This document shows positions 4,861 through 62,820 of a stretch of 64,000 bases of DNA, one piece after another. Under the pieces are notes generated by a model. That model saw nothing but the letters and a program-made list of their open reading frames with translations, was not told the origin of the DNA and did not search any database. The stretch lies in assembly GCF_003018255.1 (NCBI RefSeq), contig NZ_CP027440.1; one strand, 5' to 3'. Origin of the DNA: Escherichia coli. Lineage in GTDB: Bacteria > Pseudomonadota > Gammaproteobacteria > Enterobacterales > Enterobacteriaceae. The position numbers and the translations under genes are program-made. Within the stretch, counting starts at the first letter, position 1. Each line of letters opens with the position of its first letter.

Positions 4861-4929
4861 CTGCACCATGATGTGAATGTTGCACCAATATAGTGCTTCA
4901 ATGGAAACATTAAGCACCATATTGGTGCA
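4861..4929. promoter_or_regulatory. NtrC (NRI) upstream activator sites for glnAp2
   Basis: TGCACC...GGTGCA-type dyads read at 4881-4896 (tgcaccaatatagtgc) and 4914-4929 (gcaccatattggtgca), plus a further tgcacc repeat from 4861. Confidence 0.65.
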
Positions 4930-5080
4930 ATGACCTTTGGATAACCCTTTTTATGCTCCGTGAAAGCGATCACAAAGGGACTCTGCAATACTTGTTTGCG
5001 GAGGATGTTTGTGATCCTGTTTTGTAGTGCGATTAATCCGTGTACAATAACGCGCTATTTCTAATGCCTGAGGCAAAGTT

Positions 5081-27143: not shown

Positions 27144-30100
27144 TTACACCTTTTCCACATTCACAAGGAAGGACTTAAACTCCGGCGTCTGCGTGTTCGC
27201 ATCACCGACGAATGGCGTCAACGTATTGGCAATAAAGCCTTTTTTCGCAACACCTTCATAGCCCCAGTGAATCGGAATACCGATGGTATCGATATCTTTG
27301 CCGTTTGCTTTCAGCGTGCGAATACGTTTGGTCACTACCGCTTTGGCTTTGATATAGCCACGGTTGGAGGAGACTTTCACAGTATCGCCCTGGGCAATGC
27401 CAAGTTTATTCGCCAGCGACTCCCCGATTTCCACAAACTGCTCTGGTTGCAAAATCGCATTCAACAGCGCGTGTTTGGTCCAGTAGTGGAAGTGCTCGGT
27501 CAGACGATAGGTGGTTCCGACATACGGGAACTTATCGGCTTTACCCAATGCTTCGGCGTCGTCTTTAAAGATACGCGCAGCCGGGTTCGAGATAACGTTT
27601 GGATGCAGCGGGTTAGTTCCCAGCGGCGTTTCAAACGGCTCGTAGTGTTCCGGGAACGGACCTTCCGCCATCTTATCGAGGGCAAACAGACGTCCCATGC
27701 CTTCCTGCTGCATGATAAACGGCCCTACGCCGCTGCCCGGAGGCGCTGCGCTGTAGTCCGGAATATCCCAGCCGGTCCACTTAGTGCCGTCCCATTTCAG
27801 CAACTGACGCTTCGGATCCCATGGGTTACCCTGCGGATCTGCGGAGGCGCGGTTATACAGAATGCGGCGGTTAAGCGGCCATGCCCATGCCCAGCCCAGC
27901 GTGTTACCGAGGCCAGACGGATCGGCGTTATCACGACGCGCCATCTGGTTACCTTCTGGCGTCCAGCTACCGGCGAAAATCCAGCAGCCACAGGAGGTCG
28001 TACCGTCATCGCGCAGTTGGGCGAACGAGCTAAGTTGTTGGCCTTTCTTGACGATAACCGCACCGGTTGCCGGATCGGTAATATCGGCCAGCGCCTTACC
28101 GTTGCTCTCCATCGCCACTTCTTCCGACTTCGGCTCATGCGGAATGGCGTAGTTCCAGGTCATATTCAGCACCTGGTCCGGGTTTGCGCCACCCTGTTCG
28201 GCATACATCTTGCGCAAGCGCAGGAAGATACCGGAGAGGATCTCGCCATCAGTCAGCGCAATCCCTGGGGCGTCCGCACCTTTCCAGTGCCACTGTAACC
28301 AGCGACCGGAGTTAACGATTGAACCGTTCTCTTCTGCGAAGCAAGTCGATGGCAGACGGAACACTTCGGTCTGGATCTTCGACGAGTCAACTTCGTTCAG
28401 CTCACCGTGGTTCTGCCAGAAGTTAGAGGTTTCAGTGTTCAGCGGGTCGATGGTGACGAGGAACTTCAGTTTCGACAGACAACCGATCACTTTGTTTTTG
28501 TTCGGGAATGAGGCAACAGGGTTAAAGCCCTGGCAGATATAGCCATTGACCTTGCCTTCTTTCATCATCTCGAAGTATTGCAGGACGTCGTAGCCTTTAT
28601 CCCACTTCGGCAACCAGTCAAAGCCCCAGCTATTTTCCGCCGTCGCTTTATCACCAAAGAATGCCTTCATCATTGAGACGAAGAATTTCGGGTAGTTGCC
28701 CCAGTAGTTGACCTGGCCTTCCAGCAGTGGTTTTGGCGTGTTGGCAGCGAGGTAAGTTTGCAGATCGGTCTGCTTCTCGCTTGGCAACGTCATGTAACCT
28801 GGCAGACTCTGCGACAGCAGCCCCAGGTCGGTCAGCCCCTGAATATTGGAGTGACCGCGCAGGGCGTTAACGCCGCCGCCAGCCATCCCCATATTGCCGA
28901 GCAGCAACTGGATCATCGCCATCGTACGAATGTTTTGCGCACCAATGGAGTGTTGCGTCCAGCCGAGCGCGTAAAGGAACGAGGCAGTTTTATCGTGAGC
29001 ACTGGTCTCAGCGATGTATTCGCAGACTTTCAGGAATGCGTCTTTTGGCGTACCACAGATGTTTTCAACCACATCTGGCGTGTAGCGGGAAACGTGCTGT
29101 TTCAGCAAGTTCCACACGCAACGTGGATGTTGCAGGGTAGTATCGCGTTTGGCGAAGCCGTTTTCGTCCAGTTCGTAAGTCCAGGAGGATTTATCGTACT
29201 TACGTTTTTCCGCGTCATAGCCGGTGAACAGGCCATCTTCAAAGCCGTAATCCTCACGCACGATCAGGCTGGCGTTGGTATAGGCTTCGGTGTATTCGCG
29301 GTTGAATTTTTCATTGTTCAGCAGGTACAGCAATACGCCTGACAGGAAAGCAATGTCAGTACCGGAACGAATAGGGGCATAGTAGTCAGCTACCGCCGCC
29401 GTACGCGTAAAGCGAGGATCGATCACAATCAGCTTCGCGCCATTGTGAATTTTGGCTTCCATCGCCCAGCGGAACCCGACCGGGTGAGCTTCAGCGGCGT
29501 TACCGCCCATCACCACGACGAGGTTGGCGTTCTTGATGTCGACCCAGTGGTTGGTCATCGCACCGCGACCAAATGTTGGAGCAAGACTTGCTACCGTTGG
29601 TCCGTGTCAGACACGCGCCTGGTTGTCGACCGCGAGCATACCCAGCGCGCGGGAGAATTTTTGCGTTAAATAGCCGGTTTCGTTACTCGACGCGGAAGCA
29701 CACAGCATCCCGGTGGAGAGCCAGCGGTTAACGGTCACGCCTTCGGCGTTTTGCGCAATGTAGTTAGCATCGCGGTCTTCTTTCATCAGTTTGGCGATGC
29801 GATCAAACGCCTCTTCCCAACTGATTTGCTGCCATTTATCAGAACCTGGCGCACGGTATTCCGGAAACTTCAGACGGCTTTCGGAGTGGATGAAATCCAC
29901 CAGGCCAGCGCCTTTCGGACAAAGTGCACCGCGGTTGACCGGGTGATCCGGGTCACCTTCGATATGGAAGATAGATGCTTTGGCGTTTTTTGCTCCGTCA
30001 CCGAGGCTGTACATCAACAGCCCACAGCCTACGGAACAATAGGTGCAGGTATTACGGGTTTCGCGGGTGCGCAGCAGTTTATACTGCCGGGTTTCCGCGA

Positions 30101-34969: not shown

Positions 34970-35118
34970 CTGTTGCCGGATATACGATCTGTAGGCCGGA
35001 TAAGGCACTCGTGCCGCATCCGGCAATCAATGCCTGATGCGACGCTGTCGCGTCTTATCAGGCCTACAACTATTGCCGACCCGTAGGCCGGATAAGGCAC
35101 TTGTGCCGCATCCGGCAG
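34970..35118. repeat. REP/BIME cluster in the rhaD-rhaA intergenic region
   Basis: Repeated gtaggccggataaggc...gccgcatccggca and gcctgatgcgacgc...cttatcaggcctac units. Confidence 0.75.
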
Positions 35119-43902: not shown

Positions 43903-44045
43903 GTGTAGGCCTGATAAGACGCTATCAGCGTCGCATCAGGCATCCTGCTCAAATGCCGGATGCGGCGTAAACGCCTTATCCTGCCTACAAAACCCATAAA
44001 TTCAACAGGTTTTGTAGGCCTGATAAGCGTAGTGCATCAGGCATT
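43903..44045. repeat. REP/BIME cluster between yiiM and cpxA
   Basis: gtaggcctgataagacgc...gcatcaggc and gccggatgcggcgtaaacgccttatc units read directly. Confidence 0.75.
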
Positions 44046-46190: not shown

Positions 46191-46205
46191 TTTACGTTGT
46201 TTTAC
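46191..46205 (-). promoter_or_regulatory. CpxR box (GTAAA-N5-GTAAA) in the cpxR-cpxP divergent region
   Basis: Plus-strand tttacgttgttttac is the reverse complement of GTAAAacaacGTAAA; an additional GTAAA at about 46236. Confidence 0.65.
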
Positions 46206-46284: not shown

Positions 46285-46785
46285 ATGCGCATAGTTACCG
46301 CTGCCGTCATGGCCTCAACGCTGGCAGTCAGTTCATTAAGCCACGCTGCTGAAGTCGGTTCAGGCGATAACTGGCATCCGGGTGAAGAACTTACGCAGCG
46401 CAGTACGCAGAGCCATATGTTCGACGGCATAAGTTTAACCGAACATCAGCGTCAGCAGATGCGAGATCTTATGCAACAGGCCCGGCACGAACAGCCTCCT
46501 GTTAATGTTAGCGAACTGGAGACAATGCATCGCCTTGTCACCGCAGAAAATTTTGATGAAAACGCTGTGCGCGCACAGGCAGAAAAAATGGCGAATGAGC
46601 AAATTGCTCGTCAGGTTGAGATGGCAAAAGTCCGCAACCAAATGTATCGCCTGTTAACGCCGGAGCAGCAAGCGGTTTTAAATGAGAAACATCAACAACG
46701 AATGGAGCAGTTGCGTGACGTGACGCAATGGCAAAAAAGTTCATCGTTGAAGCTATTGAGTAGTAGCAACTCACGTTCCCAGTAG
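46285..46785 (+). CDS. cpxP: Periplasmic Cpx-pathway inhibitor/adaptor CpxP, 166 aa
   Basis: ORF 46282..46785; peptide [36 protein letters not shown]... Confidence 0.93.
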
Positions 46786-46794
46786 TAAACCCTG

Positions 46795-46852
46795 TTTTCC
46801 TTGCCATAGACACCATCCCTGTCTTCCCCCACATGATGTGGGGGTTTTTTTT
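46795..46852 (+). ncRNA. cpxQ: cpxP 3'UTR-derived sRNA (CpxQ-like), ending at the cpxP terminator
   Basis: Segment from the cpxP stop to the terminator hairpin cccccacatgatgtggggg plus T8 (46826-46852); CpxQ is known to be processed from this 3'UTR. Confidence 0.45.
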
Positions 46853-46933
46853 ATCCTCAATTTGCCTGCTGCTTAATGCATTGCAGATGATTTGCTTCCG
46901 TTATACTAGCGTCAGTTGATAGCGGGAGTATTT

Positions 46934-49034: not shown

Positions 49035-49135
49035 TGCCTGATGCGCTTCGCTTATCAGGCCTACATGAATTCTGCAATTTATTGAATTTGCGAACTTTTG
49101 TAGGCCGGATAAGGCGTTCGCGCCGCATCCGGCAT
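49035..49135. repeat. REP/BIME elements after pfkA
   Basis: gcctgatgcgcttcgcttatcaggcctac and gtaggccggataaggcgttcgcgccgcatccggca read directly. Confidence 0.75.
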
Positions 49136-62221: not shown

Positions 62222-62752
62222 TTACGCTTTGTAGCTTAATTCTTCGATGGTGTGGAAATGGTTGGTATAGATGCAAATGTCGCCTGCAATATCCAACGCC
62301 TTTTCAGCAATTTCACGGGCGCTAAGTTCAGTGTTTTCTAACAGCGCGCGCGCCGCAGCCTGGGCGTAAGGGCCGCCGGAGCCGATAGCAATAAGATCGT
62401 TTTCTGGCTGCACCACGTCACCGTTACCGGTGATGATAAGCGAAGCGGTTTCATCCGCGACTGCCAGCAGTGCTTCAAGTTTGCGCAGCATGCGATCGGT
62501 ACGCCAGTCTTTTGCCAGCTCAACGGCGGCTTTGACCAGATGGCCCTGATGCATTTCCAGTTTACGTTCAAACAGTTCGAACAGCGTAAAAGCATCCGCA
62601 GTACCGCCCGCAAAGCCCGCGATGACTTTGTCGTTGTACAGACGGCGGACCTTTTTCACGTTGCCTTTCATTACGGTATTGCCCAACGTGGCCTGACCAT
62701 CACCAGCGATGACCACATGGCCGTTACGGCGTACGCTTACTATAGTTGTCAC
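62222..62752 (-). CDS. hslV: ATP-dependent protease subunit HslV, 176 aa
   Basis: N-terminal Thr protease peptide [31 protein letters not shown]... Confidence 0.97.
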
Positions 62753-62820
62753 GAGCTGACCCCTTGGTTACGAATACAGAGTACAAACCCCGTACAAAAG
62801 TACGGGGCATAATGCAATTA

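Follow-up and report, generated by a model that had tools for sequence, protein, structure and literature searches.

The cpxQ small RNA gene in the cpxP 3'UTR of an Escherichia coli genome, its conservation across Enterobacterales and the W-phi attachment site within it

The cpxP-fieF region and the identity of cpxQ

The DNA analysed here, called the window throughout, is a 64,000-nt stretch of an Escherichia coli contig (NZ_CP027440.1, assembly GCF_003018255.1), and the site under study lies in it within the gene order cpxA-cpxR / cpxP / fieF / pfkA, as in K-12. The ORF upstream of the site encodes an LTXXQ-family protein (Pfam), as expected of CpxP, and stops with TAG at 46783..46785, an in-frame TAA following at once (46786..46788). 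In the divergent promoter region on its other side lies the only perfect match to GTAAA-N5-GTAAA in the 64-kb window, a consensus whose form and role are established for the Cpx regulon; at one mismatch or fewer the scan gave 5 matches against 3.4 expected, a number that is not significant alone. We take this box to be the transcriptional input for cpxP, and hence for CpxQ. The features around which the argument is built are these:

46191..46205, minus strand: CpxR box GTAAAACAACGTAAA in the divergent cpxR/cpxP promoter region (consensus match)
46285..46785, plus strand: cpxP coding sequence, parental mRNA of CpxQ (maps to K-12 b4484; Pfam LTXXQ, E = 8e-22)
46795..46852, plus strand: mature CpxQ sRNA, 58 nt (57/58 identity to K-12 cpxQ, b4716)
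46795..46808, plus strand: 5' pairing region, CpxQ nt 1-14, UUUUCCUUGCCAUA (cfa and nhaB complementarity)
46812..46825, plus strand: second pairing region, CpxQ nt 18-31, ACCAUCCCUGUCUU (skp complementarity; same as in K-12)
46826..46852, plus strand: Rho-independent terminator and predicted Hfq-binding 3' module, with 8-bp stem, UGA loop and U8 (fold, terminator scan, covariation)
46836, plus strand: loop polymorphism, A here and C in K-12

The first-pass annotation of this stretch had described a cpxP 3'UTR carrying a CpxQ-like sRNA, with about 40 nt between the cpxP stop and a strong terminator hairpin followed by T8. The spacer turns out to measure exactly 40 nt (46786..46825), and the hairpin, CCCCCACA-TGA-TGTGGGGG at 46826..46844, has an 8-bp stem with 6 G-C pairs, closed by a 3-nt loop, and runs directly into T8 at 46845..46852. 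Alignment to the known RNA allows a firmer statement than likeness. Window positions 46795..46852 (+) are identical at 57 of 58 bases to the curated gene of K-12 MG1655 (ncRNA cpxQ, b4716, 'small regulatory RNA CpxQ', 4106330..4106387, 9 nt after cpxP), and over the 101 nt that span the cpxP end and cpxQ the identity is 100/101. The sole mismatch sits at 46836, in the middle of the terminator loop, where the window has A and K-12 has C. Locus, strand, boundaries, pairing regions and terminator architecture are otherwise those of K-12 CpxQ: the gene begins 9 nt past the cpxP stop, on the same strand, and shares the cpxP terminator. Both pairing regions, the absence of which had been named as grounds for refutation, are unbroken and the same as in K-12, and the 5' region makes the known cfa and nhaB contacts (see below). 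Since the lone change lies in the terminator loop and the identity is 57/58, we read the sequence as cpxQ and not merely as CpxQ-like; we put the probability that it is the E. coli cpxQ gene, the known 3'UTR sRNA cut from the cpxP mRNA, at about 0.97. As to the extent first proposed for the feature, 46786 to 46852, the end is correct, whereas the start lies 9 nt upstream of the mature 5' end at 46795. The element is already known, and nothing in it is new in itself: CpxQ of E. coli K-12 and Salmonella was reportedly described by Chao and Vogel and by Grabowicz et al., both in 2016.

A query covering the 67 nt from the stop to the end of the T tract matched all but one of the 5426 complete E. 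coli genomes (5425). Identical matches to the form with A at 46836 occur in 4189 complete E. coli records and to the K-12 form with C in 899, so A is the majority allele of the species; the two are not expected to differ in function. RNase E cleavage, Hfq binding, Cpx induction and target repression are established by experiment in the nearly identical K-12 and Salmonella sequences, and it is from that literature that we infer them for the window strain.

The predicted fold of the 67 nt has -17.4 kcal/mol (z = -2.35), a stability matched by 5 of 200 shuffles, and the terminator scan returned 2 sites against 1.4 expected by chance. By themselves these two results are weak evidence, and the case for more than chance rests on comparison, with K-12 and the other E. 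coli genomes above and across genera below; the hairpin with its U8 fits a predicted Hfq-binding module. An ORF of 98 aa overlapping the site on the opposite strand (46538..46834) had no Pfam match and was treated as spurious.

Conservation, processing and the Hrs1 model

A DNA-pattern scan of species-representative genomes, in which the pattern GTTTNCCTTGCCAN{6,14}ATCCCTGTCT covered most of both pairing regions, returned at least 120 loci; since it demanded most of both seeds, this set of loci is silent on how many cpxP genes are without the element. The genera among the matches listed are Escherichia, Salmonella, Citrobacter, Klebsiella, Enterobacter, Pantoea, Erwinia, Mixta, Dickeya, Brenneria, Lonsdalea, Yersinia and Xenorhabdus. 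Every listed locus with enough upstream DNA (114/114) has a cpxP homologue directly upstream on the same strand, and CpxP identity to E. coli across these loci ranges from 39.6 to 98%. The 31-nt body of the RNA is essentially invariant across the 120 listed loci, even where CpxP identity has fallen to about 40%. Nucleotides 1-14 are invariant in all 120, though the search pattern itself specified most of that region, and so is the second region across the listed loci; the 9 positions that the pattern left free (T; TAGACACC) are unchanged in 111 of the 120.

The hairpin was not part of the search pattern, and each sequence was folded separately. Among the loci listed the terminator exists in 37 distinct versions, all of them perfectly paired over 6-9 bp, with changes on both sides of the stem: at stem position 6, for instance, the pair is C-G in 38, U-A in 19, A-U in 17 and G-C in 2. 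From a MAFFT alignment, in which stems and loops of differing length fall out of register, RNAalifold recovered no more than 3 of the terminator pairs, and for this reason folding sequence by sequence was used instead. Taken together, an invariant unstructured body and a covarying terminator are what, on comparative grounds, we would call the signature of a seed-pairing Hfq sRNA.

These patterns bear directly on whether the stretch could be an inert 3'UTR, one that supplies the cpxP terminator and has no separate RNA function. Such a reading accounts well for the hairpin and T8, which form a standard intrinsic terminator of the kind that every gene needs. It would, however, lead one to expect drift in the 31 nt before the hairpin, yet these are invariant while CpxP is only 40-55% identical, and it is the terminator, the part needed for termination, that varies freely by compensatory changes. 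Moreover, cpxQ-dependent phenotypes and target regulation have been published (PMC4817254, PMC6755755), and published deletion and compensatory-mutation data refute an inert 3'UTR for K-12 and Salmonella. We regard it as very improbable.

One match falls outside the expected range of hosts: the contig NZ_SZPQ01000034.1, which bears the name of the alphaproteobacterium Martelella alba, has a cpxP-CpxQ locus of enterobacterial type whose CpxP is 52.6% identical to that of E. coli, and the assembly is probably mislabelled or contaminated.

The 5' end of the RNA involves two further features (the slash marks the cut):

46759..46789, plus strand: A-R-N-rich tract (AGT AGT AGC AAC at 46759..46770; AGT AGT AAA at 46781..46789)
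46790..46798, plus strand: processing junction CCCUG/UUUU (K-12 cpxQ 5' end maps to 46795; junction conserved)

The K-12 annotation implies a cut between 46794 and 46795. RNase E reportedly prefers a U at +2 (Chao et al. 2017), and the junction agrees with this preference but lacks a purine at -2. In published work the enzyme that frees CpxQ from the cpxP mRNA, aided by Hfq, is RNase E (PMC9438474), and the product carries a 5' monophosphate, arises by RNase E-dependent processing and is stabilised by Hfq (PMC9438474, PMC6755755, PMC10250213). Among the listed loci the distance from the cpxP stop to the core varies from 4 to 152 nt, and the CCCT just before the pattern is nonetheless retained in 113 of the 120; the conserved block thus has a sharp 5' edge, CCCT/GTTTT, that is independent of the reading frame, as expected of a processing site.

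An sRNA with a promoter of its own inside the cpxP 3' end, as opposed to a processing product, would be one of many 3'UTR sRNAs of that kind. A scan for sigma-70-like promoters found none within the cpxP 3' end upstream of 46795, which fits processing rather than independent transcription, and the block begins abruptly at its edge whatever the stop distance, with no conserved -10- or -35-like elements upstream; the RNase E-dependent processing and 5' monophosphate reported for CpxQ also argue against separate initiation. We attach very little probability to an independent promoter and retain processing from the cpxP mRNA.

The 36 nt before CCCT are rich in AGT, AGC and AAC triplets. Of 79 distinct orthologous tracts, 82% contain at least 3 A-R-N triplets in a row; the corresponding share is 16% for shuffles and 17% for windows taken from inside cpxP, figures to be read with the phylogenetic relatedness of the compared tracts in mind. 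The tract is retained whether it codes for a Ser/Asn-rich CpxP tail or lies within the 3'UTR, and could be an Hfq distal-face site guiding the cut, which is a hypothesis only. Units of AGTAACCAG(TAA) are repeated near the cpxP end in the window and in orthologous tracts, which suggests that the cpxP stop codon may have shifted inside a repeat array.

In its means of release CpxQ resembles SdhX, SroC and MicL-S, which are likewise freed by RNase E from an mRNA 3' end, use the terminator of that mRNA, bind Hfq and pair through short seeds (PMC9438474). Unlike them, CpxQ covers almost the whole 3'UTR of a monocistronic mRNA and belongs to the same stress pathway as the protein encoded upstream.

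The databases give a less direct picture of the locus. At the gathering score Rfam had no match at cpxQ anywhere along the element, although the whole window was searched; the best match below it was RF02628 'Hrs1', to 46780..46852, with 44.5 bits (E = 1.5e-7) against a gathering score of 56.4, and on the minus strand, that is, antisense to cpxP. Read literally, this orientation would make the functional RNA one encoded opposite cpxP, all the more so as Hrs1 passes its gathering score in five Erwiniaceae loci, in 5/5 of them on the strand opposite to cpxP and the core. The consensus of the model, however, begins with A7 and a GC stem, which is the terminator read backwards, so that an RNA from that strand would be without a terminator. 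The published hrs1 of Erwinia amylovora lies between cpxP and fieF, co-oriented with both ('> > >'), depends on Hfq and has a Rho-independent terminator (PMC4070566, Table 1), and the curated K-12 cpxQ is on the plus strand. An RNA from the opposite strand is therefore extremely improbable in our estimate, and the RF02628 model itself appears to be strand-inverted, the reverse complement of the RNA. The plus-strand CpxQ shares with Hrs1 the cpxP-fieF position, the Hfq dependence, the Rho-independent terminator (PMC4070566) and the same core sequence, and these correspondences make Hrs1 the Erwiniaceae orthologue of CpxQ. The sub-gathering score arises because the model was built from Erwiniaceae sequences in reverse orientation, not from lack of homology. 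Hrs1 was classed as Erwinia-specific in 2014 (PMC4070566), a class that the conservation of the core beyond Erwinia, as judged from the loci compared here, contradicts.

The consequence is visible in genome annotation. None of the 12 PGAP-annotated RefSeq E. coli records among those listed has a feature at 46786..46852, a gap likely due to there being no Rfam family that reaches its gathering score. CpxQ is at present without a working Rfam family, the related model being inverted and limited to one clade, and a correctly oriented, broader model would mend the annotation across Enterobacterales. Other matches of the permissive search (NsiR1, RyhB and OmrA-B among them) were set aside as chance look-alikes of a terminator. 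Elsewhere in the window, matches at the gathering score were to the ES222 sRNA, the SECIS_3 selenocysteine insertion element, two naRNA4 elements (REP-type), ES036 and a ClpQY promoter element, these matches lying at 4892..4999, 29554..29612, 34994..35064, 43908..43985, 49057..49098 and 62750..62807.

Target pairing and the proposed pathway

Repression through base pairing with CpxQ has been reported for nhaB, skp, agp, ydjN, fimA and cfa (PMC9438474, PMC4817254, PMC6755755, PMC10250213). Three of these, as K-12 genes, were searched for complementarity in tests that were blind to the published positions, with the following results. (i) In cfa, CpxQ nt 5-11 (CCUUGCC) are perfectly complementary to -135..-129, and C11 stands opposite G-135, which is the published CpxQ-cfa compensatory pair (PMC6755755); only 0.3% of shuffled bodies pair with the cfa leader as well as the CpxQ body does. 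(ii) In nhaB, nt 6-13 pair with +307..+314 of the coding sequence by way of G:U pairs, at most 1 nt from the published U7 contact, a contact at which a change from A:U to G:U has been reported in E. coli (PMC10250213). (iii) In skp, a published CpxQ target (PMC4817254, PMC9438474), nt 18-25 (ACCAUCCC) are perfectly complementary to -20..-13, adjoining the Shine-Dalgarno sequence; this site is a prediction computed here and is not taken from a publication, Grabowicz et al. giving no pairing details for skp.

Complementary runs of 7-8 nt occur in 21-79% of shuffles and are statistically not unusual alone, so that the short complementarities count only through falling at published positions. For nhaB and skp, RNAduplex runs on the full 31-nt body told little, since long internal loops were allowed and 38% and 47% of shuffles, respectively, pair as well; tests of contiguous complementarity and of local windows were used instead. 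The second pairing region goes by the label R2 and has published targets of its own.

The cfa leader contains one more possible contact. Around -175..-168 (GGGACAGG in K-12) it can pair with CpxQ nt 24-31 over 8 bp, two of them G:U, and this falls within -195..-161, the Hfq site needed for CpxQ repression (PMC6755755); the pairing may be due to chance.

From these elements and the literature, the following course of events may be proposed. (i) Phosphorylated CpxR would activate the cpxP promoter; the box is present in the window and its activation is known from the literature. (ii) Transcription of cpxP would run to the intrinsic terminator at 46826..46852, a structure seen here. (iii) RNase E, with Hfq, would cut 9 nt past the stop, between G46794 and U46795, yielding a 58-nt RNA with a 5' monophosphate; the cut comes from the literature, the conservation of the junction from this analysis. 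(iv) Hfq would bind the U8 tail and the terminator and stabilise the RNA, as the literature describes. (v) The invariant and unstructured nt 1-14 and nt 18-31 would pair with mRNAs such as those of nhaB, cfa and skp, leading to a block of translation or to RNase E-mediated decay, where the regulation is from the literature and the complementarity from here. The outcome, again following the literature, would be a limit on membrane-protein load during inner-membrane stress. In this sense CpxQ is the non-coding branch of the Cpx response, and a single transcript gives rise both to it and to the CpxP protein.

The W-phi attachment site

The 3' part of the gene coincides with a phage integration site:

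46809..46855, no strand assigned: 47-bp attB block, identical to the attP core of W-phi and P2-like phages (alignment)

The block, which was defined by aligning the window, the W-phi attP, a circular P2-like genome and the attR of a lysogen, consists of CpxQ nt 15-58 and 3 further nt (ATC); in W-phi, attP is flanked by ogr and int. The window holds one copy of the block and no prophage, so its attB is empty. The 67-nt query hit 6099 places in the 5425 E. coli genomes, with about 670 extra copies across them, only one of which was confirmed as a prophage junction. One surplus copy adjoins the integrase gene of a circular P2-like phage genome 32 kb in size. The block recurs in 62 phage records, those of W-phi, fiAA91-ss, R18C and Salmonella and Yersinia phages among them. 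Strain KMi029 has a complete P2-like prophage inserted between cpxQ and fieF, and the right junction of this prophage (attR) reads phage arm, block and then exactly the host (fieF) flank of the window. A 163-nt query made of phage arm and core found full coverage in only 15 genomes; the phage arms are variable, and the query is unusable for counting lysogens.

Use of the site spans several genera, as integrases beside the element testify. Immediately beyond the CpxQ terminator, within about 1.1 kb and on the opposite strand, are W-phi-type integrase genes or their remnants; those of Kosakonia (88% identity) and Erwinia sp. OLFS4 (67%) are full-length, and those of Trabulsiella, Yersinia pestis and Pantoea ananatis are remnants. 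In contrast to most Erwiniaceae, Erwinia sp. OLFS4 has a terminator of the E. coli type, a hint that the phage copy may replace the host terminator on integration.

With 47 bp identical to a W-phi-type attP core, and with remnants of such integrases adjoining the element in several genera, one might ask whether the sequence is conserved at the DNA level, as an attachment site, and not for an RNA function. Bacteria would not be expected to keep a site for the benefit of a phage, and the most conserved part of the element takes in nt 1-14, beyond the limits of the block. Within the block, species differ in the terminator but not in the second pairing region. Conservation as an attachment site is thus a reading to which we give next to no probability; the simpler one is that the phage exploits a sequence that the function of the CpxQ RNA keeps constant.

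In the literature searched, descriptions of this attB do not name the RNA. The W-phi attB has been given as the old MG1655 coordinate 4104392 (PMC3448106), and the site as 'cpxP-fieF: Wphi1 (P2)' (PMC3032704); the RNA gene goes unnamed in these descriptions because they predate CpxQ, and in the literature searched we found no link between the W-phi attB and CpxQ. In other respects the site is like those at which P2-like phages integrate at the ends of sRNA genes (rybB, cyaR): the attP/attB block spans the 3' part of the RNA gene, including the inverted repeat of the terminator, and integration regenerates the 3' end of the gene (PMC3032704, PMC3448106). What sets it apart from the rybB and cyaR sites is that the same literature describes it only as 'cpxP-fieF' or by coordinate. 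An attB inside cpxQ adds CpxQ to the sRNA genes used by P2-like phages (rybB, cyaR, ssrA), and such phages possibly carry a functional fragment of an sRNA.

The copy of the block in the phage lies 112 nt downstream of ogr, on the same strand. It is conceivable, though we consider it unlikely, that phage transcripts, or those of the lysogen at attR, end in the second region of CpxQ and its Hfq terminator and so would act, during infection or lysogeny, as truncated CpxQ mimics, either regulating that region's targets or competing for Hfq. If this were true, a corollary would be that integration overwrites the host terminator with the phage version, which would account for the E. coli-type terminators found here and there in Erwinia, Mixta and Pantoea.

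Finally, position 46836 is the centre of the inverted repeat within the attB block, and the phage attP copies carry A at the matching loop position, as does the window, where K-12 has C. The crossover region of a tyrosine integrase would be expected at this loop, and if it lies there, the C of K-12 may make that strain a poorer W-phi attB.
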